This document shows, one piece after another, positions 5,767 to 20,291 of a stretch of DNA of 49,361 bases. Every line of letters starts with the position of its first letter. Position 1 is the first letter of the stretch. The translations under genes and the position numbers were made by a program. Source of the stretch: Geodermatophilaceae bacterium (lineage in GTDB: Bacteria > Actinomycetota > Actinomycetes > Mycobacteriales > Geodermatophilaceae); assembly GCA_051000515.1 (NCBI GenBank), contig JBPCOF010000344.1:1-49361 (forward strand). Direction: 5' to 3'. The notes beneath the pieces were generated by a model. The model saw nothing but the letters and a program-made list of their open reading frames with translations. It was not told the origin of the DNA and made no database searches.

Positions 5767-7157
5767 TAGGTGCTGGAGACCTGCCCCACGTGCGAGGCCA
5801 CGATCGTCAACGCCACCTGAGCCAGCAGCCGGTCGTCGGCATCGGTGAGATCCAACCCGGTGATCTTCTCGATCCGCTGCGCCCGGTAGGCCACGGTGTT
5901 CGGATGCACCCGCAGCGCACGCGCGGTCTGCTTGGGGCTGCTCTGGTTGCGGAGGTAGACCGACAAGGTCGTGATCAACTCGCCACCGTGGGCGGCGTCG
6001 TAGGTGATCAGCGCTCCGAGGACCTCGTCGGCGAAGCGCCACAGATCTCCCATGTCGGCGATCCGCAGGAGCAGACGGTAGATCCCCAACTCGCGGTAGT
6101 CGATCAGCTGGCCGGCCCGGCCCAGGCGCAATCCGAGCTCGACTGCTTGTTCGGCCTGCCCAAAGCCCAGCGGTGCCAATTCGGCGCGGTCGAGCGGCTC
6201 GCTCAGGCCGCAGGTCCAGGTCGAGTCGAGGGACAGGTCCTGCCAGATCGCACGCCAACCCGGCGCGGAGTTGACTGTGCCGGGTTCAGTGGCCGACGCG
6301 CTGCCCACACGGAGCTCTGGGACGATCGCGACCACACCGAAGTCCCGCACCGTCGCCTTGGCTCCGGGCGGTTGCGCGTCAAGGCAGGCCATGATCGCAT
6401 CGACATCATGGTCACCTGTGCCGAGGGGCGGTGCCCCGTGCCGCCGTACGACACAGATCCGGTAGCCCGCCGAGTCGGCCAGGCCCAGGGACTTAGCCTT
6501 CTCCCGCGCATCCTCGGCATCGAGGAAATGCCCTGAGACCAGCGCGTCCACGATTGTGCGCAGGTAGCGCAGCCCGAGCTCGGTGCTGGTGCGCTCATGG
6601 GCCAAGGTGAGGGCGAAGAGGGTCGCAGCGTAGGTGGCAGTCAGCAGATCCACGTCGTCGGGTTGGGAGTCCCCATCCTCCTCGAGTACGAGCAGGTAGC
6701 CGAGGGTGTCTTCGCCGATGACGATCGGCGTCACCAGGCAGCCGAGCGCCAACGACGACCCAGGAACCGATGGAACCCGCAGAGGACGCCGCTGGGCACG
6801 CAGGGCGGTGCGCAATCGATCCACGCTCGGATCACCGCGATCCCACTTCAGATCTGTGAACTCCCCGTCTCCCCCCGACTGAGCCCGAGATCGAAACGCG
6901 GGATCCAGCAACACGATCCGCTTTCCGACCAGATCGGCGAATACCCGAGTCAGCTCGTCGGGGTCCACGCCCCTAAGAGCGGTGTCGGCAAGCTGGTCAC
7001 AGACAGCGATGGTGCGCCGGTAGACTGAGTTCTGCCGGGACAGCCCGGTCAGCACTTCGGCGAGTTCGGCGTTGGGTGCCGGTGACTCCTGTGCAGGACG
7101 CGCTAGCCGCATCGGTCGCGATCGCGGCCGGGCCTCCGTCACCGTCGAACCGCGCAC
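5766..7157 (-). CDS. PucR/CdaR family transcriptional regulator
   Basis: C-terminal PucR HTH ([31 protein letters not shown]) follows a GGDEF-like/GAF-like middle region. The start is uncertain (7157 or ATG at 7112). With 7157 it overlaps the upstream stop by 19 nt. Confidence 0.75.
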
Positions 7158-9004
7158 TCGGTGAGCCGGCTCAGCAGATCGACGGCTGGTCGCTGGGATG
7201 CTCGCGGCACGTGGACGAGGACCCCGGAGACCAACCCGTGGAGCTTCTCGATGACCTCCACCGATGCCTCGACGGCGTCGGCCGGCTGTCCCCCCACTCG
7301 AGGCAGCCCGCCGACCGCGGTCGAGAGTACGGACATCTCGGGGACCTCGTTGCGCAGCCGCTCCATGGCCCGGAGGCTCTCGAACGGCGCAATCGAGGCG
7401 ATCACAGGAATGTCGATGCCGCGGGCGGGCAGAGCAGCCAGCAGCAGGATCGCCTCGTCGGCGTCGTAGATGGCGTCGGTGATCAGGAAGTGCGCACCGG
7501 CCTGAGCCTTGGCCTCCGCGCGCTCGACCTCCCGATTCAGATCGGCCGCTGCGGTGCTGATCGAGGCACCAATCACGAATTGGGTGCGCTCACGGGTCGC
7601 GACACCACGCCAGTCCTGGCCCTCGTTGAGCCCTCGCAGGGCGGCGATCAACCGGACCGAATCGACATCCCACGGTTGAGCCGCCTCGGGATAGTCGCCG
7701 GCAACTCTAGGAGACCCGGTGCGGCAGACCACGATTCGCAGGCCGAGTGCGTGGGCGCCGAGCAGGTCGGCCTGGAGCGCCGGCAATGTCCGGTCAGCCG
7801 TCTCGGCTGGTAGAAGCACCTCTGCCTCGACCCGCTCGTGCAGCACGACAGCGGCCGCGACTGGCCCGACCCGAGTCGCGGGCGGCGCCGGCTCGGTGAT
7901 CGCGAGTACGTCCGCGCCGGCTGCCATCAACTCGCGGGCCTGATCGACGAAGTCACCCACATGCGGCCCCTGAGGGGCGGCAAGGCCGGCGATGATCACG
8001 AATCCCGCCTCCCGTGGCCAAGCCGGCGGGTCCGGTGCGTGCTCGGGCGCCAACGGCACCGTACGTACCCGCTGCCGGTCCATCGGCGTCCTGCGTCGGG
8101 CCCGGGGGGCGGGTACGAGTCCGGCGACCGCCTTTGCCACGGCTCGGGTATGTGCCGGCGTCGTGCCACAGCAGCCACCGACGATCGTTGCCCCGTTTCC
8201 GACGAACTCAGCTGCCGCTGCAGCGAAGTAGGCGGTGTTGTGTACGTAGCGCACCTGCCGGCCCAGGCGTTGCGGCGTGCCAGCATTGGGCTGCACGACA
8301 ATTGGCAGCTCTGCCGATGCGGCAAGCTCGGCGATCACGTCCTGTAGGGCAGCCGGCCCGACCGTGCAGTTTGCACCGATGGCCGCGAGGTCCGAACGGT
8401 CCAGGGCGCCGACGACGGCGGCCGGGTCCTCTCCACGCAGGGTTCGCCCGTCGTCGCCGAAGGTCATCTGGGCGATGATGGGGAGGTCGGACTCCGCCAA
8501 GGCCACTTCGACTGCCTGGACGAGGGAGTCGAGATCACCGAAGGTTTCCAGCATAAGCAGGTCGACCCAGTCGACCAGGCCCGCTATCTGTTCCCGAAGT
8601 ACTTCGGCACGCATCTGCCGCGGAACCCGGTTGACAGCGGTCGCGCTGTTGGCCGGACCCACCGAGCCGGCGACAAGGACCCTACGGTCGCTGTCCCTGG
8701 CCGCCTCCCGGGCCAGCCGGGCGCCGGCGATGTTGAGTTCGACGACACTGTCCTCCAGACCTACCCGGGTCAGACGAAGCCGGTTGGCGTCGAAGGTGTT
8801 GGTCTGAATGATGTCCGCACCGGCGGAGACGTACGCGGCATGCAGGTCGCGGACCAGCCGAGGCTGGGTGATGTTCAGTTCGCACAACGATCGATCCAGC
8901 GGGACGCCAGTGGCGTGCAGCATCGTCCCCATCGCACCGTCACAGACCACGATCTGCTCGGCGAAACGGCGGCGCAGCCCAGAGCGCGAGTCGTCCAAGA
9001 GCAT
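7139..9004 (-). CDS. Bifunctional homocysteine S-methyltransferase / methylenetetrahydrofolate reductase (YitJ-like)
   Basis: N-terminal Hcy-MT domain has VVCDGAMGTML and the zinc motif GGCCGTTPAH. The C-terminal half is MTHFR-like (LGLRIVVCRTG, FLITDAIYD). The start is taken at ATG 9002-9004. Confidence 0.8.
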   Translation of the reverse strand: MLLDDSRSGLRRRFAEQIVVCDGAMGTMLHATGVPLDRSLCELNITQPRLVRDLHAAYVSAGADIIQTNTFDANRLRLTRVGLEDSVVELNIAGARLAREAARDSDRRVLVAGSVGPANSATAVNRVPRQMRAEVLREQIAGLVDWVDLLMLETFGDLDSLVQAVEVALAESDLPIIAQMTFGDDGRTLRGEDPAAVVGALDRSDLAAIGANCTVGPAALQDVIAELAASAELPIVVQPNAGTPQRLGRQVRYVHNTAYFAAAAAEFVGNGATIVGGCCGTTPAHTRAVAKAVAGLVPAPRARRRTPMDRQRVRTVPLAPEHAPDPPAWPREAGFVIIAGLAAPQGPHVGDFVDQARELMAAGADVLAITEPAPPATRVGPVAAAVVLHERVEAEVLLPAETADRTLPALQADLLGAHALGLRIVVCRTGSPRVAGDYPEAAQPWDVDSVRLIAALRGLNEGQDWRGVATRERTQFVIGASISTAAADLNREVERAEAKAQAGAHFLITDAIYDADEAILLLAALPARGIDIPVIASIAPFESLRAMERLRNEVPEMSVLSTAVGGLPRVGGQPADAVEASVEVIEKLHGLVSGVLVHVPRASQRPAVDLLSRLTECAVRR

Positions 9005-9140
9005 CTTCACCCCCAGAACAGCTGAATCACCTCGAAGCACGAGCTTAAGCCGCCCGGAGCCGTTGCCCCCCTGTTACCGCGAGGCTACGCTCCGATTTCC
9101 GAGTTGAGACAGACCGGTCTACATAAGGAGTGCGCTACAA

Positions 9141-10316
9141 ATGACCGAATACGACCCGAGAACTGCCACCGGGATTCCCACCGAGCCAGTCGGTTCGCTG
9201 CCCCGTCCGGCCAAGCTGCAGGAGGCCTACGCGGGCTACGACGCCGGCACGACCAGTAAGGACGAGCTCGAATCGCTTCAGGAAGAAGCGGTTCAGGACT
9301 CCCTCGACCGCGGCGCCGCCACTGGCGCGCCGATCATCTCCGACGGGGAGCAGCGCTGGTCCAGCTTCGCGACCTATCCGATCACCGACACCCTGGCCGG
9401 GACCGGACTCGTCGACACCCTGTCCGGTGAAGGGGGCCAGTTCTTCGCCATCTTCGCCGACGGCCACGGCCGCCAGCTGCCGCGCCTGACCCACGGTCCG
9501 TTCACGTACAAGACCTATGCCGCGGAGACGCTGCAGAAATCCCTTGGGATGACCAACACGCCGCTCAAGCAGGCCGTCATCGCGCCGTCCATGCTCGCTC
9601 TGCTCTACCCGCTCAAGGACGAGATCTCGGACTACTCCCGCGAGCAATTCGAGTCCGACGTCTGCGACGAGACCGAGAAGGACATCCGGCAGGCCTTCGA
9701 GGCCGGTGCCGCTCGGGTCTCGATCGACTTCACCGAGGGCCGGTTGGCCACGCGGGCAGATCCCCGTAACCCGTGGACCGGGGCCGGCCTGCTTCCGCAC
9801 TTCATCGAGCTGAACAACAACGTCTTGGGCCGGTTCTCGGCCGAGGAGCGGGCCAGGATCGGCATCCACACCTGCCCCGGCGGTGACCGGGACTCGGTGC
9901 ACAGCGCCGACGTCCCCTACAACGACCTCCTGCCCAGCATGTTCAAGATCAATGCCGGGTACTTCCTGATCCAGCTCGCCAGCGAACGGGACAAGCCCAC
10001 GGTGCACAAGACGATCGGTGAGAACATTCGCGGTGATGCCGACGGCGTGACGCAGATGGCCTACATCGGTGTGATCAATCCGGGTAACCCTCGGGTGGAA
10101 TCGGCCGAGGAAGTATGCGATCACCTGATCGCGGCGGCCAACCACATCGACAAGCAGCAGCTGGGATCGACCGACGACTGCGGGTTCTCGCCGTTCAGCA
10201 TCGACGAGAAGCCCAACCACGGCTCCCCGGACTACGCCCGTGATGTCGCGTTCCAGAAGATCACGAATCGGGTCAAGGGCACCCAGATGGCCGCTGAGAA
10301 GCTGGGTATCTCCTAG
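9141..10316 (+). CDS. Single-barrel cobalamin-independent methionine synthase-like protein (MetE C-terminal-domain family)
   Basis: The 391-aa product shows Zn-ligand contexts IHTCPGGD and DDCGFSPF, and an N-terminal PTEPVGSLPRP. It lacks the second (folate-binding) barrel of about 760-aa MetE. AAGGAG lies 10 nt upstream of the ATG. Confidence 0.75.
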   Translation: MTEYDPRTATGIPTEPVGSLPRPAKLQEAYAGYDAGTTSKDELESLQEEAVQDSLDRGAATGAPIISDGEQRWSSFATYPITDTLAGTGLVDTLSGEGGQFFAIFADGHGRQLPRLTHGPFTYKTYAAETLQKSLGMTNTPLKQAVIAPSMLALLYPLKDEISDYSREQFESDVCDETEKDIRQAFEAGAARVSIDFTEGRLATRADPRNPWTGAGLLPHFIELNNNVLGRFSAEERARIGIHTCPGGDRDSVHSADVPYNDLLPSMFKINAGYFLIQLASERDKPTVHKTIGENIRGDADGVTQMAYIGVINPGNPRVESAEEVCDHLIAAANHIDKQQLGSTDDCGFSPFSIDEKPNHGSPDYARDVAFQKITNRVKGTQMAAEKLGIS

Positions 10317-10356
10317 GCCCTAGCCCTCGATGCAGTCCGGCACCGGAACTACGGCG

Positions 10357-10410
10357 CTGGTACTACAACACCGCGGTAGCGACCTTGATGCCGCGGTGTT
10401 GTAGTACCAG
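10357..10410. terminator. Perfect 20-bp inverted repeat (14-nt loop) between convergent genes
   Basis: CTGGTACTACAACACCGCGG (10357-10376) pairs with CCGCGGTGTTGTAGTACCAG (10391-10410). It covers the last 16 codons and the stop of the TetR gene. Confidence 0.4.
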
Positions 10411-10980
10411 GACCCCGATTTCCTTGGCCCGCATCGCTGCCTGGCCATCACCTTCCAGGGCGGAGATGATGGAGCCCTTCATCAGGATGTGCCACTGACG
10501 AGCAAACGAGTCGGTGTCGGCGATCCCAGCGCCCTCGGCGAGTTCGCGCAGGAAGCCGCGGATGTTCTCCAGATTCGCGACTGTGGCAACCCGCACCGGA
10601 TTGGTCACGTCGGTGTGTTCGAGCAGGACTTGGATGAACGTGCAGCCCTCGAACTCCGGGGTCTGGAACCAGTCATGGAAGACATCGAAGATCGCGAGCA
10701 GCCGGGCGCTCGGGTCGGATTCGCGTCGGACCACCTCGGCGGCCAGCCACTGTCGGGTCCAGAGTTGTTCACGACGCTCCAGAAAGGCCAGGATCAGGTC
10801 TTCCTTGGAGGGGAAGTGCCGGTAGAGCGTCATCTTGGCCACGGCCGCCCGTGCCACCACCGCGTCCACACCGACGGTGCGCGTACCGCCACGACTGAAC
10901 AGTTCATAGGCCGCGCGCATCGTGCGTTCACGGCCGCCGTCGACGAGCACGGGGTTCCTACCCTGTTGCTTCGTTGTCAT
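10363..10980 (-). CDS. TetR/AcrR family transcriptional regulator
   Basis: The HTH GVDAVVARAAVAKMTLYRHFPSKEDL is the TetR signature. The start is taken at ATG 10978-10980 (MTTKQQ). Confidence 0.8.
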   Translation of the reverse strand: MTTKQQGRNPVLVDGGRERTMRAAYELFSRGGTRTVGVDAVVARAAVAKMTLYRHFPSKEDLILAFLERREQLWTRQWLAAEVVRRESDPSARLLAIFDVFHDWFQTPEFEGCTFIQVLLEHTDVTNPVRVATVANLENIRGFLRELAEGAGIADTDSFARQWHILMKGSIISALEGDGQAAMRAKEIGVLVLQHRGIKVATAVL

Positions 10981-11004
10981 GTCGTCACCAACTGTTCGAC
11001 CCAA

Positions 11005-11020
11005 TGGACATCGATGTGCA
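11005..11020. promoter_or_regulatory. Candidate TetR operator palindrome TGGACATCGATGTGCA
   Basis: A 16-bp palindrome with 7 of 8 positions paired, lying 25-40 nt upstream of the TetR start codon. Confidence 0.25.
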
Positions 11021-11137
11021 CGAGGATGGGGCTCTCCTCGCACTCCCACGAGTGTCGCAGACACCCCTTCATTGACCGCTGGACGTCTCGGCAAACCTAT
11101 TCAAGCCTCGTTCCGACGATCAGGGATCGACTGTGGG

Positions 11138-12340
11138 TCAGAGCCCTGCTGCACTGCGCAGTACATCGGCGTGATCGGTGTTCTCCCAAATGAACTCGGC
11201 GTCGTCGCGGCCGAAGTGGCCATAGGCCGACGTCGCGCTGTAGATCGGCCGGTGCAGCTTGAGGTAGTCGCGGAAGGCGGCCGGGCGCAGGTCGAAGTGC
11301 TCGTCGACGAGTTCGCGGATCACCGACTTGGCCACCTTCTCGGTTCCGAACGTCTCCACCAGCAGCGACAGCGGACGGGCCACCCCGATGGCGTAGGCGA
11401 CTTGGACCTCCGCGCGGTCGGCCAGGCCGGCAGCGACGATGTTCTTGGCGACGTATCGGGCGGCATAGGCAGCCGAGCGGTCCACCTTCGACGGATCCTT
11501 TCCGGAGAAGGCGCCTCCGCCGTGACGGGCGAAACCACCGTAGGTGTCCACGATGATCTTGCGACCGGTCAGGCCGGCGTCCCCGACCGGGCCGCCGATG
11601 ACGAATCGACCGGTCGGGTTCACGAAGAAGTTCGCCCGCAGGCTTTCGGCGTCGTAGAGCTCGGCCGGGATCACCTTGACGACGACCTCGTTCCAGAGCT
11701 CGTCGACCAGGTTGGCCTCGGAATCCTCGTCGTGCTGGGTCGAGATCAGGACCTTCTCCACCGACACCGGCACGCCGTCGACGTACCGGACGGTGACCTG
11801 GGTCTTGCCGTCCGGGCGCAAGTGCGGCAGGACGCCGCTCTTGCGCACATGGGCCAGCTGACGGGCCAGCCGGTGGGCCAGCGCAATCGCCATCGGCATG
11901 AGCTCCGGCGTCTCGTTCGTGGCGTAGCCGAACATCATTCCCTGATCGCCGGCACCGACCGAGTCGAGCGTGTCCGTGCTGGACTGCGACCGCGCCTCGC
12001 GGGCGGTGTCGACACCCTGGGCGATGTCCGGGGACTGCCGGTCCACGGCGACCAGCACCGCGACGTGGTCAGGGTCGAAGCCACAGGCGGCGGTGTAGCC
12101 GATCCTGCGAATCGTGTCCCGCACGATGTCGGTGTACGGGATCTGCCCGGGCGTGGTGATCTCACCGGCGATGACGACCATGCCGGTGGTGACCATCGTC
12201 TCGCAGGCCACCCGGGAGTACGGGTCGAGTTGCAGAGCCGCGTCCAGGATCGCGTCGGAGATGGCGTCGGCCATCTTGTCCGGATGGCCTTCGGTCACCG
12301 ATTCCGACGTGAACATGAACTCGTTGTCAGCGTGGGCCAT
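11138..12340 (-). CDS. metK: S-adenosylmethionine synthetase
   Basis: Signature motifs [29 protein letters not shown] and [19 protein letters not shown] are present. The start lies 5 nt after the upstream stop. Confidence 0.95.
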
Positions 12341-12345
12341 GGGGG

Positions 12346-13452
12346 CTAGCTCTCCTCTGTCAGGGCGGGTGCCGAGGGTTCGGCAATTGCCTCGTTGCTG
12401 GGTAGGGACAGATCTCGGCGTACGGCGGCGGCACCGCTGACCATCGCCTTCAATTTGGCGCGGGCCACAAAGGCCGGAAGATGCCGAAGGCCGCAGTCCG
12501 GATTGACGATCAACCGTTCCGGGGGGACGACCTCGAGAGCGCGGCGGATGCGTGCGGCCACGACATCCGCGCTCTCGATGTCCTCGCTCTTCACGTCGAC
12601 GACGCCGAGCCCGAGCCGACGCTCCCAGGGATAGCGCTTGAACAGGGCAAGGTCGCCGTATCCCTTGCGGGCGAACTCCAAGACGAGCGTGCCGACTTCA
12701 GCGTCGAGGACTGCCGGGAAGAGGAAGTCGTAGTGGCCCTCCCAGGACGGGCGGGCGTAGCGGTTGCCGTAACAGACGTGCAGGGCCCAATCGGCCTGCA
12801 CGTCCTTGGTGACGAGATTGATCGCGTCAATGGCCAATCCGGCGTCGTCGGGATAACCGGCCAGGAACGGCTCGTCGATCTGCAACCGCGTAGCACCGGC
12901 TGCCACCAACTCCCGGGCCTCGGCGTTCAGCGCGCGGGCAAGCGATCGAACCAGATCGGCACGGTCGGAATAGGCCGAGTTGCGGATCCGTCGGGACAGC
13001 GAGAAGGGTCCGGTGAAGCTGAACTTGATCGGTCGGTCGGTCTGGCTGCGGGTGAAGACGAAGTCGTCGACCAGGCCCAATGCCGATGTCTCCCCGGTCG
13101 GGAGCGGTTCGGGCACTTCTGCGTCGTAGTAGTCGTAGTAGTAGGACTTGTTGGTGTCCGAGATGGACACACCGGGGATCCGGGCCAGGAGATAGTCGAT
13201 GTCGTTGTCGCGCCGCAGCTCCCCGTCGGAGACGACATCGATGCCAGCCTGTTCCTGGTCCTTGATCGCCGCCTTGATCGCGACGTCGTGGATCTCGGCC
13301 AGGTGTGCCGGACTGATCCGGTGCAGGTAGTAGTCGGTCTTGAGCCGCTCCAGCCACTCCGGAACCGAGTAGGAGCCGACCACGGTGGTGGGCAGCAGCG
13401 GCAGGGTCGACGAGTCCGACGGTTTGGTCGAGTGCGCGGTTTCCTGACTCAT
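12346..13452 (-). CDS. Core (single-barrel) MetE-like homocysteine methyltransferase
   Basis: The 368-aa product has [21 protein letters not shown] and Zn-ligand contexts HVCYGN and NPDCGL. There is no N-terminal folate-binding barrel. ATG 13450-13452 lies 1 nt after the upstream stop. Confidence 0.8.
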
Positions 13453-13453
13453 G

Positions 13454-14938
13454 TCAGTCGCGTACCTGGGCGGTGAGCGTGACGATGTTCGTGCCGCTGC
13501 GGTGCGCGAACGGGGCGTAGCCGACGTCAAAGCCCTTGCGCCGCCCGATGTGTTGCAGCAGCGGCCCGTTCACCCAGTTGACGATGGAGCCGTCGTATTT
13601 CCCAGGGCCTAGGAAGCCGGTGCGGTATTGGTGCGGGTCGGTGACGAAGATGTCGTGACATTGCAGCCGGCCGTATGGATGCAGTAGCGGCAGGGTGTCG
13701 ACGAAGCTCGCGATCGCTCCGTTGCTGACCTGCATCCGTACGTCACCGTGCCGCTCGAGCAGCGGCCGGAGCATCTCACCGTTGACGCCGGGTGCGATCT
13801 CGTAGAGGTCGAGTCCGGACATCGGCGCATAGCGCTCCTCCAGCTTCAGCGCATCCCAGACAGCCATCCAGAAAGCCGCTGCACGAGCGACATCCGGGAA
13901 GTGGGCCGACAGTGCGTCGACCAACACGTCCGGCCCGAGCGCTAGGAGCTTGTCGATCGCACCGACCAACTTGTCCGCCTCGATCCCGAACTCCGCGCAG
14001 ATCCGGGCCGCGTCGGACTTTCCGACATAGGACCGGATTTCAGCGCTGTAGGTGTGCCCGCCGATCTGGGCGACGTCCTCGGTGGGCAGGTTGTCGTAGA
14101 CGTTCGAGATGTAGACCAGGAAGACCTTGTAACGCAGGAAACCCAGGGCGGTCATCGGGGTGGTCGCATCCAGGGCGAACGAACTCACGTGGGCGGCATG
14201 GTCGGACACGTTCTCCCGGGCCAGTGCCAGCACGTGCTCGGAGTAGTCGCACATCATGTAGTGCAGCCGGCGGTAGTACTCGCTGCCGTGCGCGGCATCG
14301 AGTTTCGCGAACTCGTCGAGCCAGGTCTTGGCCTGGTTGCCATTGCCCACGCCGAGTTCGATGACGTACAGCTCGTCGGGCAGAGCGTTGTGTGCGGCCA
14401 GATCGTCCCAGACGGTCAACATCTCTTTGATGAGCTCGTGGACGCCGGCGATGTTTCGAGCATCGCTCTCCCCGCCCGGCAGCGCCTGCTCGTACAGCCG
14501 ACCGGTCGCCTTCTCCCAGACCCCGAGGAAGCGCCAGTACAGCGAATTGAACTCCCAGATCCGGCTCGTGGTTCCGGTGGACCAGTCCTCGAGATAGACC
14601 CGGTCCAGCCCTTCGGGCTCGCTGCGGCGGGCCAGTACGTCGCGCACCACGTCGGCGAGATCGGTGTCGGCACACCGACGCAGGTCGACTGCGATCTCGA
14701 GGTTGTCCTCGTCCGGCTCGGCGTTGGCACCGTTGCGCGCAGCCGGCGACAGGATCGGCCGTACGTCGATGACATTTCGGAAATTGTTCTTGTACTGCAC
14801 CCAGTCACAGACCAGCCGCAGCCGGGACAGGTCGATGGCGTCCTCGCACAGGGCGTCGACGATGGGCGACAGACAGGCCGTCAGGTCCAGCGCTCTGGCG
14901 CCCCGCAGTTTCTTTGTGGGACGAACCTCAACCAGCAT
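13454..14938 (-). CDS. Uncharacterised class I SAM-dependent methyltransferase-like protein (MidA/DUF185-like by eye)
   Basis: Motif I is YVIELGVGNGNQA. It is followed by HYMMCDYSEHVL and VYISNVYDNLP, which resembles the MidA pattern E-x-G-x-G...Y-x-x-E-x-S...NE-x-x-D-A-x-P. The start is ATG 14938 (GAAAGG 6 nt upstream) or 14944. Either start overlaps the metF stop at 14928-14930. Confidence 0.6.
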   Translation of the reverse strand: MLVEVRPTKKLRGARALDLTACLSPIVDALCEDAIDLSRLRLVCDWVQYKNNFRNVIDVRPILSPAARNGANAEPDEDNLEIAVDLRRCADTDLADVVRDVLARRSEPEGLDRVYLEDWSTGTTSRIWEFNSLYWRFLGVWEKATGRLYEQALPGGESDARNIAGVHELIKEMLTVWDDLAAHNALPDELYVIELGVGNGNQAKTWLDEFAKLDAAHGSEYYRRLHYMMCDYSEHVLALARENVSDHAAHVSSFALDATTPMTALGFLRYKVFLVYISNVYDNLPTEDVAQIGGHTYSAEIRSYVGKSDAARICAEFGIEADKLVGAIDKLLALGPDVLVDALSAHFPDVARAAAFWMAVWDALKLEERYAPMSGLDLYEIAPGVNGEMLRPLLERHGDVRMQVSNGAIASFVDTLPLLHPYGRLQCHDIFVTDPHQYRTGFLGPGKYDGSIVNWVNGPLLQHIGRRKGFDVGYAPFAHRSGTNIVTLTAQVRD

Positions 14939-15905
14939 TGTCATCCTTTCGGCGGCTTCCCGTTGCCGTGGCGGACGCGGTCGCCGTACGTGGCGGGAGC
15001 CCGGCGCGCTCGAGCAGTTCGGGTACGACCTGCTCCTGGCCAAAAGCCATGACATGTACACCGGCCACGCCAGTCATCTCACGCAGCTGCTCGATGGTCT
15101 CGACGCACAGTGCCATGCCCTGCGCCGCAACCTGATCCGAGGGAACGCCGCGTAACCGCCGTACGACGTGGTCGGGGATGTGGATACCGGGAACCTTGGA
15201 CTGCATGAACTCCATCGCCCGTACCGTGCGGATCGGTCCGACGCCGGCGATCACTCCGCAGCGCTGCTCGAGCCCGAGGTCGGTGACCTCGCTCATCCAG
15301 CGGCCGAAGAGGTCCAGATCGAAGACGAACTGGGTCTGGATGAACTCCGCGCCGGCAGCGACCTTCTTACCCATCCGTCGGGCACGAAAACGCAGCGGCG
15401 GTGCGAAGGGGTTCTCGACGGCGCCGATCAGCCAGTGCGGTGCCGGCTTCACCGGCTTACCGGACAGCAGCCGTCCCTGGTCACGCATCAACCGTGCGGT
15501 CCAGATGAGCTGGACGCTGTCCAGGTCGAAGACCGGCATCGCGTCAGGATGATCGCCGAAGGTCGGATGATCCCCGGACAGCATCAGGACGTTCGGGATG
15601 CCGACGGCGCCGGCCGAGATCAGATCCGATTGCAGGGCGATCCGGTTGCGGTCGCGAGTCGTCAGCTGCATGACCGGCTCGACGCCATTGCGCAGGGCCA
15701 GGATGCTGCCCGCCCAGCTCGCCAAGCGGGTGTGCGAGCCCTGGTTGTCGGTGATGTTGGCCGCGTCCACCCAGTCCCGGAGCAGCTCCGCCTTGTTCGC
15801 GATCGCCCCAGCGTCGGCACCGCGCGGCGGCCCGATCTCCGCGGTGACCGCGAATCGGCCGGAGTGCAGCGCGGTTCGCAGCCGTCCCTTCCCGGCCGGG
15901 ATCAC
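14928..15905 (-). CDS. metF: Methylenetetrahydrofolate reductase
   Basis: MTHFR family pattern is present: FAVTAEIGPPRG, ANITDNQG, QLTTRDRNR and LMLSGDHP. The start overlaps the metV-like stop (ATGA at 15902-15905). Confidence 0.85.
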   Translation of the reverse strand: MIPAGKGRLRTALHSGRFAVTAEIGPPRGADAGAIANKAELLRDWVDAANITDNQGSHTRLASWAGSILALRNGVEPVMQLTTRDRNRIALQSDLISAGAVGIPNVLMLSGDHPTFGDHPDAMPVFDLDSVQLIWTARLMRDQGRLLSGKPVKPAPHWLIGAVENPFAPPLRFRARRMGKKVAAGAEFIQTQFVFDLDLFGRWMSEVTDLGLEQRCGVIAGVGPIRTVRAMEFMQSKVPGIHIPDHVVRRLRGVPSDQVAAQGMALCVETIEQLREMTGVAGVHVMAFGQEQVVPELLERAGLPPRTATASATATGSRRKDDNAG

Positions 15906-16390
15906 AGGTTCGGTCCCTCGGCCACCAGTCGTAGGTCGGTGAGCACCAGATGGGTGCGGGTCAGGCCGTCATCTGTGGTCCACAAGTCGTCGTCGCGGCC
16001 CTGCCAGTAGCTGACCCAGGAACTCTTGCCCCACTCCCGGTGGTCGATCGGACGCTGCAGGAGGGTCAGATCGCTGACTCTGCCCTGCTGTTCGGCCCGT
16101 TCGTATGCGGTGACCCAGACGCACTGGGTGTCGGGGTAGACCTCGCAGGCGCCAGTGGCCGACACCCCTCCACAGGGGCCGTTGCGCAGCTGCTTGGGGC
16201 AGGTCATGGGACAGGCATAGCCGGTTGCCGGCAGCGCACACTGACCGCACATCCGGCACCCGAACGCGCGGCCCTTGACCTGCTTCTCGGCCTGGGTGAA
16301 CGCCTTGCCCAGCCGCTCGTGCCGTTCCAGGAAACCGGCGATGAAGCGCTTCACCGGGCCGGGGGTCAGGAGGTGATGCAACATGTACAT
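15902..16390 (-). CDS. MTHFR C-terminal-domain (MetV-like) Cys-rich protein
   Basis: The Cys cluster FGCRMCGQCALPATGYACPMTCPKQLRNGPCGG is typical of the small subunit of MetVF-type reductases. ATG 16388-16390 was chosen, but no clear SD precedes it. Confidence 0.7.
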   Translation of the reverse strand: MYMLHHLLTPGPVKRFIAGFLERHERLGKAFTQAEKQVKGRAFGCRMCGQCALPATGYACPMTCPKQLRNGPCGGVSATGACEVYPDTQCVWVTAYERAEQQGRVSDLTLLQRPIDHREWGKSSWVSYWQGRDDDLWTTDDGLTRTHLVLTDLRLVAEGPNL

Positions 16391-16634
16391 CGAACGTGCC
16401 GACCACGAGGGCCTAGTCGGTCGGGGCCAGGCCGCCCCGCTGACGACCGTGCTCAGTCCCGTACGGACAGGAGCACGGCGACAGTGCTGCGCATCGTGCC
16501 TCCAGCCAGCGCTCATCCACCCGGTCGGGTGACCGAACTCCCATCATCGCCTCAATGTGCAAGCCCGGGTAGCCGCATTCGACCACAAATTCCATCGCCC
16601 GGGCTTTGTGCCGCCAGCACAACCCTCGGCTCTT

Positions 16635-18155
16635 TCAGCCGTACGGCGTGAGGAGTTGATCGACGGGCGCGAAGTCATCGGTCAGAATCAACGGGTCCAG
16701 GCCGAGAAAGTCGTCGAGCTGCTGCTGGCTCACCATCGACATCGGGGTGGCCCGGTCGAGCAGGCCGGCTCCAATCGCGACCCGGTCCAACGGCTCGTCG
16801 GATGCCAGCACCACGATGTTCCCGCCAGGGGCGCCGCTCAGGTCGCCGGTGGGACTGATGACCAGCAGGTGGTCGAATATCGAGGCGACGGTGGCGATCT
16901 CGGCGCGGGCGAAGTCCAACGGGTCGTGATCGATGACGTTGAGCGCATACAGACCGCCGGGCACGAGCGCTCTGGATACCTCCGCGACGGCTTCGCGAGT
17001 GGTCAGATGCCAGGGAACGGCCACCCCACCGAAGGCATCCCCGACCACGACGTCGGATTGGCGACTCGGCGCCTGGGCCAGGCCGACTCGTCCGTCGCCC
17101 ACCGTGACCTGCAGCTCGTCGACGTCTGGGAGCGCAAGCCGCTCGCGGTCCACGGCGACCACTCCTGGGTCGAGCTCCACAACTGTGTTGACTCCCCCGG
17201 GTCGGGTATTCAGCAGGTACCGCGGCAGGGTCATCCCCCCGCCACCGATATGCAGAACCGACAGCGGCGTGCCCGGTATCGCATGCGCGTCGAGGGCGGC
17301 TGCGATGGCACGGGAGTAGGCGAACTCGAGGCGGGTCGGGTCGTCAAGGTCGACGTAGCTGTGCCGCAGGGTGTCCAGAATCAGCAGCCGTCCGCCATCG
17401 GAAACCGGCTGCACGCTGGCACAGTGATAACGCGTCTCGGTGTCACAGGGTTGTGGTGCAAGCACACCGAGACCGGCGCCCACGACGACGAGCGCGAGCA
17501 GTGCCGCCGTGGGACGCTGGATGGTTCTCGATCGGCCGGTCGTCGATCCACTGGAGGTCAGCAGCATCCCGAGGCCGGCCAGGGCCAGGAGTCCTCCGGT
17601 GCCGAGCAGGATGATGCTGGTCGGGACCAGCGCGACCAGGACGAATCCGGTCACGAAGGTGGCCACGATCGCCCCGAGAGTGCTGATGCCCGAGAGCCGC
17701 CCGACCACCGAGCCGGTCTCGGCGAGGCTGGCCAACTGCAGCTTGACGACCATGGGCGGGACCGCCGAGAGCAGTGCAGCGGGGGCGAACACGGTGATCG
17801 CGGCCAAGAGCAAGGCGACACTTGCCGCCTGACTCGGGCCGACCCATTGCGCGACGAACCGCACGATCGGAGTGATCAGCAGGACCAGGGCACCGCCGGA
17901 CAGCAGCAGCGGCCCGATCAGCCGGCGCGGGTTGCTCTGGTCCGCGACCCGCCCGCCGGCCCAGGCGCCGAGGGCGATCGCGGCGAGGGCGAACCCGATG
18001 ACCGCGGTGTTGGTCTCCAACGTGATACCGACGTACGGAGCGATCAGTCGCAGGGAGGTGATCTCCAGCACCAGCACAGCGGCCGAGGCTCCGAAGACCA
18101 GCGCCGCGGCGAGGTAGGGGTGTAGTTCTCGGGTCCGTGGGGTGGGCTCGCTCAT
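16635..18155 (-). CDS. Fused polytopic membrane domain / spermidine synthase-like protein
   Basis: The N-terminal half has about 7 hydrophobic helices. The C-terminal Rossmann fold shows VLHIGGGGMTLPRYL and DVVVGDAF. The start ATG overlaps the SRAP stop (ATGA at 18152-18155). Confidence 0.75.
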   Translation of the reverse strand: MSEPTPRTRELHPYLAAALVFGASAAVLVLEITSLRLIAPYVGITLETNTAVIGFALAAIALGAWAGGRVADQSNPRRLIGPLLLSGGALVLLITPIVRFVAQWVGPSQAASVALLLAAITVFAPAALLSAVPPMVVKLQLASLAETGSVVGRLSGISTLGAIVATFVTGFVLVALVPTSIILLGTGGLLALAGLGMLLTSSGSTTGRSRTIQRPTAALLALVVVGAGLGVLAPQPCDTETRYHCASVQPVSDGGRLLILDTLRHSYVDLDDPTRLEFAYSRAIAAALDAHAIPGTPLSVLHIGGGGMTLPRYLLNTRPGGVNTVVELDPGVVAVDRERLALPDVDELQVTVGDGRVGLAQAPSRQSDVVVGDAFGGVAVPWHLTTREAVAEVSRALVPGGLYALNVIDHDPLDFARAEIATVASIFDHLLVISPTGDLSGAPGGNIVVLASDEPLDRVAIGAGLLDRATPMSMVSQQQLDDFLGLDPLILTDDFAPVDQLLTPYG

Positions 18156-18913
18156 TCGGGGTTGTCGAAGCTCAGTTGCTGGGTCTGCTGCTGATCGGCG
18201 CGGCCGAGATCGACGCGCTCGAGCAGCTCCGGTCCGTTGTTCTTGACGTTTCCCACGTCCGGACCGACGGGCCGCCGTTCCAGCGCTTCGACGACCTCCA
18301 GCGGCGTCGGGTCCAGCAGGGTGCCCGGATCCTGCTCGTTCGGATCCAGCCAGGCATCCCAGCGATCCCGAGGCAGCACGAACGGCATCCGGTCGTGGAT
18401 CTCGGCCAGCGGACCGACGGCCGGGATGGTGATCACCGTGCAGGTGAGCAGCAGATCCGGTTTGGTTCCCCAGATCTCCCACAGGCCGGCCAGGGCCAGC
18501 ACCGAGCCGTCCTCGGGGCTCATGAAGTAGGGCTGTTTCACCGCGCCTCTCGGCCCCGAGCCGGTGACCTTCCACTCGTACCAGCCGTCGGCCGGGATGA
18601 GTGCCCGGCGGCGCTCGAAAGCCTTGCGGAAGGCGGGTTTGTCGGTCACCGACTCGACCCGGGCGTTGAACATCTTCGAGCCGATCTTGCGGTCCTTTGC
18701 CCAGGACGGAACCAGGCCCCAGCTCACCACCGAGAGTTCGCGGTAGGTCGGCTGGTCATCGTCTTTGGGCTTGCGGGTACGTACGGCATACACCGGATCG
18801 GTCGGGGCCACGTTGTAGTCGGCCGGCACCGGCGGCGCGCCGTCGGCCAGGATCGCCTCGAACTCCACTTCGAGATCGTCCGGGCTGTTGCTCGCCGCGT
18901 ACCGGCCACACAT
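18152..18913 (-). CDS. SOS response-associated peptidase (SRAP/YedK family)
   Basis: The N-terminal MCGRY supplies the Cys2 nucleophile, and WGLVPSWAKD and FNARVES motifs are present. The upstream part of ORF 18152..19357 is antisense to aroA. Confidence 0.85.
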   Translation of the reverse strand: MCGRYAASNSPDDLEVEFEAILADGAPPVPADYNVAPTDPVYAVRTRKPKDDDQPTYRELSVVSWGLVPSWAKDRKIGSKMFNARVESVTDKPAFRKAFERRRALIPADGWYEWKVTGSGPRGAVKQPYFMSPEDGSVLALAGLWEIWGTKPDLLLTCTVITIPAVGPLAEIHDRMPFVLPRDRWDAWLDPNEQDPGTLLDPTPLEVVEALERRPVGPDVGNVKNNGPELLERVDLGRADQQQTQQLSFDNPE

Positions 18914-18968
18914 GTCGCCAACTCTAGGCCGCAGTGCGCGGCGGGCGAGATGGGAGACACTGGGCGTG

Positions 18969-20291
18969 ATGGACACCGCGACGCTCACCTCGACCGCGGC
19001 CTGGTCGGCGCCGTACGCTGCCGCGCCGGTCGATGCCCGGGCGACCGTCCCGGGCTCGAAGTCGATGACGAACCGAGCCCTGATCCTGTCCGCCCTCGCC
19101 GAGGGACCAAGCCGGATCGACGCTCCGCTGCGGGCCAGGGACACCGCGCTGATGGCCGATGCGCTGCGTGCGATCGGGACCGAGATCACCGACGAGACCG
19201 ATGGGTCGTGGATCGTCACGCCGCGGCACCTCGTCGGGCCCGCCGAGATCGACTGCGGGCTTGCCGGGACCGTGCTGCGGTTCGTACCCCCGGTCGCTGC
19301 CCTGGCGCGCGGGGAGGTCCGATTCGACGGGGACGCACGGATCCGGGAGCGACCCAATGGGCCCCTGATCGCCGCCCTGCGTCAACTGGGCGCCGACATC
19401 GACGACGAGGGCCGCGGTACGGCGCCGTTCGTCGTTCGCGGGACAGGGGCGCTGCCCGGCGGGTCGGTGACAGTGGATGCCACTGGCTCCTCGCAACTGA
19501 TCAGCGGCCTGCTGCTCGCCGCAGCACGCTTCGAGGCTGGGGTCGAGGTGATCGCGGCCGGCGCCGTGCCTTCAGCGCCCTACCTCGGGATGAACATCGC
19601 GATGCTGCGCGAACGTGGAGTCGACGTGGAGGCCGACGTCGACTTTGGGCGCGAACGCTGGCGGGTGGCACCGGGGGTCGTGCGGGCACGCGACGTACGA
19701 ATCGAGCCTGACCTGAACACTGCTGCCCCGTTCGCGGCCGCGGCACTGGCCACCAGTGGGCGGGTGACCATTTCCGGGTGGCCACAGTCCACGACCCAGC
19801 CCGGCGGCCAGCTGCCCAGGTGGCTGACCGCGATGGGTGCGACGTGCGCGGTCACTGCTGGGGGCTTGACGGTCAGCGGCGGCTCGGCGATCAACGGAAT
19901 CGAAGCTGATCTCGGTGAGGTCTCCGAATTGGTCCCGGTGCTCGCCGCGCTTGCCGCCCTTGCCGATTCCCCCTCGCGGTTGACCGGAGTCGCCCACATC
20001 CGCGGCCACGAGACCGATCGGATCACTGCTCTCGCGACAGAGTTGTCGGCCTGCGGCGCGGATATCAGCGAACTACCCGACGGACTCGTCATCCTCCCGC
20101 GTCCGTTGCACGGTCGATCCTTTGCTACCTATGACGACCATCGCTTGGTGATGGCCGCCGCAGTGCTCGGTCTGGCCGTCAAAGGAATCGCCGTCGTTGG
20201 CGCCTCGACCGTGGGAAAGACGATGCCCGACTTCACTCACCGCTGGCAGGCGATGCTCGACCACGGGGATTGCGGAGCAGCCATCGAGTGA
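18969..20291 (+). CDS. aroA: 3-phosphoshikimate 1-carboxyvinyltransferase (EPSP synthase)
   Basis: VPGSKSMTNRALILSALAEG, LRFVPPVAAL, RIRERPNGPL and HETDRITALATEL are present. The start is taken at ATG 18969. Confidence 0.9.
   Translation: MDTATLTSTAAWSAPYAAAPVDARATVPGSKSMTNRALILSALAEGPSRIDAPLRARDTALMADALRAIGTEITDETDGSWIVTPRHLVGPAEIDCGLAGTVLRFVPPVAALARGEVRFDGDARIRERPNGPLIAALRQLGADIDDEGRGTAPFVVRGTGALPGGSVTVDATGSSQLISGLLLAAARFEAGVEVIAAGAVPSAPYLGMNIAMLRERGVDVEADVDFGRERWRVAPGVVRARDVRIEPDLNTAAPFAAAALATSGRVTISGWPQSTTQPGGQLPRWLTAMGATCAVTAGGLTVSGGSAINGIEADLGEVSELVPVLAALAALADSPSRLTGVAHIRGHETDRITALATELSACGADISELPDGLVILPRPLHGRSFATYDDHRLVMAAAVLGLAVKGIAVVGASTVGKTMPDFTHRWQAMLDHGDCGAAIE

Follow-up and report, generated by a model that had tools for sequence, protein, structure and literature searches.

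A MidA-like protein paired with a core MetE in bacterial methionine operons probably supplies a missing part of an undescribed B12-independent methionine route

The DNA considered here, hereafter the window, is the entire 49,361-nucleotide (nt) stretch of contig JBPCOF010000344.1 (positions 1 to 49,361, forward strand; ~67% guanine plus cytosine) from assembly GCA_051000515.1 of a Geodermatophilaceae bacterium. A tightly packed run of five genes on its minus strand, reading from 16390 to 11138, encodes MetV, MetF, protein X, a core MetE, and MetK, where protein X is a MidA-like protein of 494 amino acids (aa) (13454..14938, minus strand). A sequence-only reading, made without database searches, had recognized the five packed genes and had taken four of them to supply methyl groups, and these gene calls are borne out by Pfam and NCBIfam matches. 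We conclude that X probably supplies a missing part of an undescribed, vitamin B12-independent methionine route.

MetV (15902..16390) and MetF (14928..15905), both on the minus strand, are the Cys-rich small subunit and the catalytic subunit of a MetVF-type methylenetetrahydrofolate reductase (MTHFR), matching Pfam PF12225 (DUF5981/MTHFR_C, E 2.9e-28) and PF02219 (E 3.8e-35), respectively. Core MetE (12346..13452, minus strand) is a predicted single-barrel, zinc-dependent homocysteine methyltransferase of 368 aa that matches Meth_synt_2 only (E 6e-45), and MetK (11138..12340, minus strand), the last gene of the run, is an S-adenosylmethionine (SAM) synthetase (TIGR01034, 548 bits). The GTG start of metF (15905-15903) overlaps the TGA stop of metV (15904-15902) by 4 nt to read GTGA, and not ATGA as first described; the other junctions stand as originally called. 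The metF TGA stop (14930-14928) lies within the X reading frame, which starts at ATG 14938 (11-nt overlap) or at ATG 14944 (17-nt overlap). We favor 14938 because a Shine-Dalgarno-like AAAGGA (14949-14944) precedes it and because X orthologues mostly start MLV. Core MetE is translationally coupled to X, with a 1-nt gap at 13453 (TGAcATG), and metK follows core MetE after a 5-nt gap at 12341-12345 (TAGcccccATG). The 244-nt intergenic leader 5' of metV (16391..16634, minus strand) is presumed to be the promoter region; it contains no sigma-70 consensus match, and no consensus sigma-70-type promoter-like or intrinsic-terminator-like sites were found within 10200-16800. Rfam searches for SAM or B12 riboswitches, at the gathering threshold and at E <= 5, gave none in the leader or 5' of ten related loci.

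More than 2,100 homologues of X came back from a single search, establishing that the gene is real; most are nameless or annotated as "hypothetical protein," and a few as "SAM-dependent methyltransferase." When 50%-identity representatives were searched exhaustively with a profile, 914 matched at E <= 1e-3. The nearest relatives are from Geodermatophilaceae metagenome-assembled genomes (MAGs), with 85 to 94% protein identity, and close homologues are present in named genomes including Nonomuraea, Streptosporangium, Sphaerisporangium, Haloechinothrix, and Pseudonocardia, as well as in MAGs of Geodermatophilaceae, Dehalococcoidia, Chloroflexia, and Eremiobacterota/Vulcanimicrobiota. Sequencing runs that hold window sequence are metagenomic DNA or of unknown type only, and the labelled runs holding the exact sequence are from sediment, soil, rock, biocrust, and sand metagenomes. 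For window positions 9000-19000, four unknown-type runs from one study hold 63 to 83% of the sampled words.

Gene order was compared across 121 close-relative loci (41 from genomes and 80 from metagenomes) of Actinomycetota, Chloroflexota, and Eremiobacterota; the metagenome loci represent close relatives of X only (at least 56% identity), and are informative on statistics rather than on diversity. Among the 41 genome loci, nearly every one with sufficient flanking sequence has core MetE directly 3' of X, as do 65/67 of the metagenome loci, and the distance from the X stop to the core MetE start is -4 to +8 nt at nearly all placeable loci, typically as TGAcATG, TGATG, or ATGA. MetF is directly 5' of X in 45/64 metagenome loci and in most genome loci, MetV is upstream in 38/54 (with MetV-MetF preceding X in most genome loci), and MetK is 3' of core MetE in 30/44; within the genome set, MetK follows core MetE in Actinomycetota only, uncultured MAGs included. 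Five genome loci consist of X and core MetE only, together with a divergently transcribed gene for MetE2, a second and distant Meth_synt_2-family protein. There are 19 metagenome loci (of the same 64) without MetF 5' of X, most of which retain core MetE directly downstream, and in loci lacking MetVF the genes 5' of X are unrelated housekeeping genes. X thus keeps with core MetE when the operon breaks up, as illustrated by the retention of core MetE at 65/67 loci compared with 45/64 for MetF and 30/44 for MetK. The neighborhood is conserved beyond this genome and in several phyla, although MetVF and MetK are less constant than core MetE.

There is some additional variation among these loci. At one of them (L039, 6001-8511) the coding sequences of X and core MetE are both broken up among multiple reading frames and metK is missing, with MetV, MetF, a TetR regulator, and MetE2 intact on the same contig; this suggests joint decay of the X/core MetE pair, with a local assembly error as a possible alternative. 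The operons of Streptosporangiales and Pseudonocardiales additionally hold PurU (formyl-THF deformylase; TIGR00655, 368 bits) and a PfkB-family, nucleoside-kinase-like gene. These additions are at L009 9721-11677 and at L011 2211-3131 and 8575-9573, and a PfkB gene also occurs in Binataceae (L047 11019-11927). If the PfkB protein is an adenosine kinase, the extended operons would span most of the activated methyl cycle, minus S-adenosylhomocysteine (SAH) hydrolase, and no SAH hydrolase was found in any examined X neighborhood, close or fused. There are no nuo (complex I) genes in the examined neighborhoods, no corrinoid protein gene in the close-clade X operons, and no Pfam match to Meth_synt_1 in X or nearby genes of the close-relative loci.

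The core MetE is very probably a real homocysteine methyltransferase, as judged from residues that are essentially invariant: the zinc ligands H225/C227/E259/C320 and the homocysteine residues S27/E78/D193, which are the equivalents of the homocysteine-binding Ser433/Glu484/Asp599 of Escherichia coli MetE, are ~98% conserved among 100 X-linked core MetE orthologues. Nonetheless, it falls below the cut-off of every NCBIfam methionine synthase model, with the best being PRK04326 (291 bits; cut-off, 406), followed by PRK09121 (172 bits; cut-off, 392) and PRK00957 (156 bits; cut-off, 258). We take PRK04326 to be the archaeal single-barrel type and PRK09121 to be the MesD-type model. The best match in the PDB is a MesD structure, 3rpd (E 9e-42, 147 bits).

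Canonical MetE carries most of its folate determinants in the catalytic barrel, including a DMV turn, an Arg493/Arg496 hairpin, Trp539, which stacks on the pterin, and Glu583, which contacts N3 and the 2-amino group (Pejchal and Ludwig, PMC539065). We aligned core MetE with Arabidopsis MetE and related the Thermotoga maritima numbering to it by offset, such that Trp539 (Tm) is Trp567 (At) and Glu583 (Tm) is Glu611 (At). At these positions, the DMV turn is replaced by NDI, the basic hairpin by [FY]Y[FY]DYY, and Trp567 (At) by Arg155, and Glu611 (At) is deleted (FLAGYP). The replacements (NDI, [FY]Y[FY]DYY, R155, and FLAGYP) are themselves highly conserved in the 100 orthologues. From its residues, core MetE thus appears to be a core-type synthase that would be unable to hold methyl-tetrahydrofolate (methyl-THF) in the canonical manner, and which has a conserved, clade-specific surface in its place.

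What kind of protein X is can be judged from weak but consistent similarities. Its only Pfam match above threshold is to Methyltransf_28 (PF02636; 24.0 bits, cut-off 23.3, E 3.2e-5), which is marginal and partial, covering residues 173-290 of X and positions 6-111 of the profile (106/249). All 37 aligned X orthologues match Methyltransf_28 weakly (best E, 8.7e-7), as well as generic methyltransferase domains, and on sequence X is a fringe member of Methyltransf_28 at best. With Pfam at E <= 1, the N-terminal 150 residues of the 37 members are unmatched and the consistent matches are weak generic methyltransferases over the core; the remaining matches are scattered and at chance level, in one to three members each. 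Neither X nor its aligned members match DUF1852 or Meth_synt_1 in Pfam, X has no match in NCBIfam, and searching PDB sequences with the X family profile yielded chance matches only (E > 0.1).

A confident AlphaFold2 (AF2) model built from the 37-sequence alignment (mean predicted local distance difference test score 82.9, predicted template modeling score 0.83) has canonical class I topology, with beta1 (190-195) followed by the Gly-rich loop ELGVGNG, beta2 (225-231) ending at D231, beta3 (251-255), and beta4 (272-277) followed by SNVYDNLP. The top structures in Foldseek are MidA (5zu0/5ztz) and the COG1565 proteins 1zkd and 4g67, with template modeling (TM) scores of 0.35 to 0.50, root mean square deviations of 5 to 8 Å, and 11 to 15% identity; generic class I methyltransferases rank close behind, and no MTHFR regulatory-domain structure is among the top 50 matches. 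The motifs YVIELGVGNGNQA (191-203), HYMMCDYSEHVL (226-237), and VYISNVYDNLP (275-285) are conserved in the 37 orthologues, and within them ELGVGNG (194-200), D231, and SNVYDNLP (278-285) show little or no variation in the close clade and lie on the expected strands of the model. The N-x-x-D-x-L-P loop resembles the ANEFFDALP motif of the MidA family. The class I SAM motif and MidA-like layout proposed at the outset are thus upheld, albeit with a marginal Methyltransf_28 match, as is the initial view that a substrate cannot be assigned. No curated family names X, and neither the profile searches nor Foldseek gave a confident family with an unrelated known substrate.

Conservation is not restricted to the SAM-type motifs. 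There are ~120 invariant columns over the full length of X in the 37 orthologues, including three invariant Trp residues. Of the SAM-type motif positions, only E194, G196, D231, S233, N279, D282, and P285 are retained family-wide, and in the distant fused relatives only E194, G196, D231, N279, D282, and P285 remain; a few residues outside of the motifs, including W128, N131, W135, R302, W357, E368, H420, G423, D429, and N457, are equally conserved. The only low-confidence parts of the model are two invariant Gly-rich loops, LPGGxSDARN (153-162) and GPGKYDGS (444-451), and this is as expected of loops that become ordered on binding a ligand or partner. X is 54 to 55% identical to its Eremiobacterota and Chloroflexota orthologues, and MetF and core MetE are 60 to 67% identical to theirs. 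X is thus modeled as a remote MidA-like class I methyltransferase fold with a conserved N-terminal domain of ~150 residues and a C-terminal domain. The residues of its pocket could suit either SAM or a pterin ligand, because acidic residues and stacked aromatics also serve pterin sites and three Trp residues are invariant.

More distant relatives of X are fused to MTHFR. Among the best 150 of the 914 family representatives, analyzed by Pfam and phmmer, we found three fused layouts: MTHFR-X (about 850-990 aa; P0206, P0259, P0241, and P0251), MTHFR-MetV-X (about 1,200 aa; P0159 and P0175), and X-MTHFR, which is sometimes extended by a weak MetV-like match (P0262/P0271 and P0263). MTHFR also lies beside an X domain in a 2,863-aa protein, and two stand-alone distant X homologues adjoin an MTHFR gene. 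All of the fusions in this set are with MTHFR or MTHFR plus MetV, and none is between X and core MetE. Named hosts are MAGs of Gemmatimonadaceae, Binataceae, Elusimicrobiota, Planctomycetota, and Omnitrophota; the MTHFR-MetV-X type alone comprises ~40 clusters, down to 39% identity, whose named members are Binatia-like, Planctomycetota, Phycisphaerae, and Bryobacter-like MAGs. The Binataceae gene order is HpcH/HpaI aldolase, Meth_synt_2, the X-MTHFR fusion, a protein of 508 aa carrying a Cys motif like that of MetV, and PfkB. A stand-alone PF02574 (S-methyl_trans) protein of 300 to 312 aa is encoded immediately 5' of MTHFR-MetV-X in three of four loci and is absent from the fourth. MetK is absent from all of the Chloroflexota, Eremiobacterota, Binataceae, and Planctomycetota-type loci, where X and a homocysteine methyltransferase remain. 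The recurrent theme is MTHFR plus X plus a homocysteine-activating zinc enzyme from either of two unrelated families (Meth_synt_2 and PF02574), without MetK.

Several other features of the fused loci are noted. An HpcH/HpaI aldolase gene is directly 5' of the X-fusion cluster both in Binataceae (L047 4044-4829) and in the unrelated Gemmatimonadaceae (L042 5225-6004), and the two products are 30% identical; aldolases of this family form or split 4-hydroxy-2-oxo acids, and a tie to one-carbon or homoserine supply is conceivable. Two Planctomycetota-type loci have a gene for a corrinoid-binding protein of ~230 aa (B12-binding_2 plus B12-binding; L134 11229-11567 and L135 11001-11686) located ~3.5 kb 3' of the PF02574/MTHFR-MetV-X pair and on the opposite strand, which may be coincidental or may point to a role for a corrinoid carrier there. 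Finally, the 1,830-aa protein P0325 has all of the MetH domains (PF02574, PF00809, PF02607, PF02310, and PF02965) together with MTHFR and MetV in one chain, showing that MTHFR-MetV can also join a complete B12-dependent synthase.

Because X is co-produced with core MetE, is fused in other lineages to the source of methyl-THF, and has a partner lacking a folate site, we place it in the homocysteine methylation step. It is close to an even call, leaning slightly toward doubt, that X is an obligate, stoichiometrically co-produced part of a two-protein, B12-independent methionine synthase together with the single-barrel core MetE. In such a scheme, MetVF would reduce methylene-THF to methyl-THF, and core MetE, having lost the canonical folate-holding residues, would bind homocysteine and activate it on its zinc. 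X would bind, orient, and activate the methyl donor, most likely methyl-THF, in or beside its nucleotide/SAM-type-looking pocket, and would also close the core MetE active site as a non-homologous replacement for the second MetE barrel; MetK would then convert methionine to SAM. We infer the X/core MetE complex, methyl-THF as the donor, X rather than core MetE as its binder, and the involvement of the SAM-type pocket, which may be a folate site, an allosteric SAM/SAH site, or both. We also count in its favor the PurU genes of the Streptosporangiales and Pseudonocardiales operons, as a link to folate one-carbon metabolism, the enzyme-like conservation of X, which is near that of its neighbors, and, possibly, the co-decay of X and core MetE at L039. 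A bolder version, which we regard as doubtful, is that X is a class I methyltransferase fold repurposed to use methyl-THF in place of SAM, and which together with a zinc enzyme (Meth_synt_2 or PF02574) would form a third type of folate-dependent, B12-independent methionine synthase. Such a type would occur broadly among soil Actinomycetota, Chloroflexota, Eremiobacterota, Binatia, and Planctomycetota, and fused to MTHFR in some lineages.

Several observations weigh against a methyl-THF-handling role for X. It retains the hallmarks of SAM-binding class I proteins (E-x-G-x-G-x-G after beta1, the Asp at the end of beta2, and N-x-x-D-x-L-P after beta4), and use of methyl-THF by a class I methyltransferase fold is not known to us. 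Core MetE could have a non-canonical folate site of its own, with R80/R81, R154/R155, and the Tyr-rich hairpin all being conserved. Homocysteine methyltransferase-MTHFR pairing also exists without X, as in YitJ-type proteins, one of which is encoded in the window, and pairing alone therefore does not demand X. All of the operon junctions in the window are tight, such that coupling is not special to X and core MetE, and no homocysteine methyltransferase gene was found near the MTHFR-X fusions of Gemmatimonadaceae and one other lineage.

The main rival explanation gives X a regulatory role, as a subunit or domain sensing SAM/SAH: it would bind SAM in its methyltransferase-type pocket but not consume it, and would inhibit MTHFR, core MetE, or both at high SAM levels. 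X would then be, by analogy, comparable to the C-terminal SAM-binding regulatory domain of eukaryotic MTHFR, or to SAMTOR, as a bacterial protein homologous to neither, and methyltransferase folds can indeed be SAM sensors (SAMTOR) or accessory proteins in methionine synthesis (MetW). The conserved SAM-type motifs fit such a role, as does the order of the MTHFR-X and MTHFR-MetV-X fusions, which is shared with eukaryotic MTHFR (catalytic first and SAM-binding second); the MTHFR-linked fusions and stand-alone homologues occur even without an adjacent homocysteine methyltransferase, and the absence of SAM and B12 riboswitches from the operons leaves room for post-translational feedback. However, in the window clade X stays with core MetE and not with MetF upon operon splitting, the fused relatives carry degenerate forms of the Gly-rich motif I (EIGVAS, EIGTAG, and DLGAGS), and no MTHFR regulatory domain is among the top Foldseek matches. 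Moreover, a sensor would leave the methyl donor of a core MetE without a folate site unexplained, and does not account well for enzyme-like conservation over 494 residues, including the invariant pair of flexible loops, which lie well away from motif I. We consider such a regulatory role unlikely.

That X is a genuine SAM-dependent methyltransferase, either a high-flux small-molecule methylase or a MidA-like modifier of core MetE or MetF, is a reading that we regard as improbable. The class I fold, the presence of all SAM motifs, and nearest structures that belong to MidA, a protein arginine methyltransferase, and to COG1565 proteins are what such an enzyme would show, and the pairing of McmA with methyl-coenzyme M reductase would be a precedent for protein modification. 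MetK in the Actinomycetota operons also suits such a role, PurU and PfkB in those of Streptosporangiales and Pseudonocardiales would be in keeping with an activated methyl cycle from which adenosine is cleared, and a PfkB gene also follows the Binataceae cluster. The examined neighborhoods lack SAH hydrolase, however, X persists in the Chloroflexota, Eremiobacterota, Binataceae, and Planctomycetota-type loci from which MetK is absent, and there is no conserved candidate substrate gene. The likeness to MidA is remote (TM 0.40/0.48 and 11 to 15% identity) and without complex I context, and it is hard to rationalize why a methylase that consumes SAM would be fused to MTHFR in three independent layouts. 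A quite different role, in which X acts on SAH and hands homocysteine to core MetE as a non-orthologous replacement for SAH hydrolase, with PfkB removing adenosine, is very improbable. The order X, core MetE, MetK would parallel the path from SAH to homocysteine, methionine, and SAM, SAH hydrolase is the sole methyl-cycle enzyme missing from the extended operons, the nucleoside-kinase-like PfkB gene recurs in two distant lineages, and methyltransferase folds hold SAH tightly. Nonetheless, no known chemistry would let this fold break the SAH thioether unless an NAD-type cofactor took part, these phyla normally carry AhcY, and neither the MTHFR fusions nor the methyl supply of core MetE would be explained.

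Two additional schemes were rejected. A methyl group moves downhill in passing from a sulfonium onto THF at N5, and the reverse is uphill, and we discounted X as a methyl relay that remakes bound SAM from SAH and methyl-THF because of these uphill thermodynamics. Running the module backwards, from SAM through methyl-THF to methylene-THF, was rejected as unlikely given the ATP cost and the presence of MetK. The sequence-only reading had offered two hypotheses, of which an accessory factor serving the folate-domain-less core MetE is now favored, and a high-flux methyltransferase with its own SAM-regeneration module less so; the X/core MetE pairing is near-invariant, the neighbors MetK and MetVF can be dispensed with, the folate determinants of canonical MetE are missing from core MetE, and the MTHFR fusions occur without MetK.

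We found no description of the X family or of this arrangement in the literature that we searched (core and alternative methionine synthases, MesX/DUF1852, and COG1565/DUF185), and the initial impression that it is undescribed stands uncontradicted. The closest functional parallels are the MesD/MesX system and split MetE. As with MesD/MesX, a single-barrel Meth_synt_2 synthase with intact zinc and homocysteine residues is encoded adjacent to a dedicated partner gene (PMC7857596). The operon likewise has no corrinoid protein, and MesD is the nearest solved structure (3rpd) to core MetE. Carriers of X, like the MesD/MesX lineages, are presumably mostly aerobic. The systems differ in that the partner is DUF1852 there and a MidA-like methyltransferase fold here, that core MetE scores 172 bits on what we take to be the MesD model, PRK09121, against a cut-off of 392, and that MTHFR is co-encoded here, or fused to X. 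MesD, in comparison, has been shown to be independent of methyl-THF (PMC7857596).

Canonical and split MetE have, beside the catalytic barrel, a second barrel or polypeptide that is believed to seal methyl-folate into the active site (PMC539065; PMC7857596). Of 147 genomes that encode a catalytic subunit of the split-MetE type, 40 have no recognizable folate-binding subunit (Price et al. 2021, PMC7857596). The window system shares the catalytic barrel and the zinc/homocysteine chemistry, and has a second polypeptide, X, encoded beside it; but X has no similarity to Meth_synt_1, and core MetE lacks the DMV, Trp, and Glu determinants. Thus, the system works most like MesD/MesX and split MetE, yet belongs to neither, as its partner is neither DUF1852 nor Meth_synt_1 and its synthase falls below every family cut-off.

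Other comparisons are more distant. MidA, NDUFAF7, and COG1565 provide the best Pfam and Foldseek matches to X and share a class I Rossmann core with an extra C-terminal domain, but X has an additional N-terminal domain of ~150 residues and is linked to MTHFR and methionine synthase, without complex I context. The regulatory domain of eukaryotic MTHFR, SAMTOR, and MetW are SAM-binding, non-catalytic or accessory modules tied to methionine or one-carbon enzymes, and the MTHFR-X domain order mimics that of eukaryotic MTHFR; X is, however, far larger than MetW, and in the window clade it tracks methionine synthase rather than MTHFR. In the Planctomycetota-type arrangement, where a stand-alone PF02574 protein precedes MTHFR-MetV-X, X stands in place of the methyl-delivery modules of MetH. 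However, X has neither a pterin-binding (PF00809) nor a B12-binding domain, and its mechanism is therefore not that of MetH, unless a corrinoid protein is recruited in trans. MesA, MesB, and MesC use a corrinoid donor (MtrA or CoFeSP) in strictly anaerobic hosts. The close-clade operons have no corrinoid protein gene, and their hosts are Actinomycetota, Chloroflexota, and Eremiobacterota of soil and rock.

Methionine synthesis is a central reaction that shapes microbial dependence on vitamin B12, and the origin of the methyl groups used by the aerobic core methionine synthases, which have no folate-binding domain, is an open question even for MesD/MesX. X is a conserved candidate partner that is tied to methyl-THF production by repeated gene fusion. 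If it is needed for catalysis, then a large family of "hypothetical proteins" and "SAM-dependent methyltransferases" would gain a function, metabolic reconstructions of abundant uncultured soil phyla would require a new methionine synthase rule, and predictions of B12 auxotrophy in these phyla would change. Were X a SAM sensor instead, bacteria would have an analogue of the feedback that controls eukaryotic MTHFR.

The genes flanking the operon include others related to methionine metabolism. A YitJ-type homocysteine S-methyltransferase-MTHFR fusion (7139..9040, minus strand; NF006396, 481 bits, cut-off 453) is encoded 2 kb from the operon, such that the region contains three different homocysteine methyltransferase-type genes and two MTHFRs; a YitJ-type homologue is within the flanks of 11/80 metagenome loci. 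Directly 5' of the operon is a gene for a 646-aa protein (16635-18575, minus strand), whose C-terminal domain is weakly spermidine-synthase/methyltransferase-like and whose N-terminal half appears by eye to be hydrophobic and membrane-like; its position is kept only in close relatives, mostly Geodermatophilaceae MAGs (L001, L003, L005, L006, L034, and L039). A TetR-family regulator 3' of metK (10363..11094, minus strand; TetR_N plus TetR_C_13), with an uncertain start codon, is similarly kept in close relatives only (L002, L003, L034, and L039). A long hairpin at 10343-10424, between the convergent MetE2 and TetR genes, gives spurious sub-threshold microRNA-family matches on both strands and is probably a bidirectional terminator. 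MetE2 (9141..10316, plus strand; 391 aa) matches Meth_synt_2 in Pfam at E 9e-6 and, weakly, PRK06520 and PRK06233 in NCBIfam; its sequence is very divergent, and its H-x-C ... C zinc signature is intact. MetE2 recurs beside the X/core MetE pair at other loci, being divergent and upstream in L025-27, L035, and L037, downstream in L088, L091, L103, and L116, and also present at L067.

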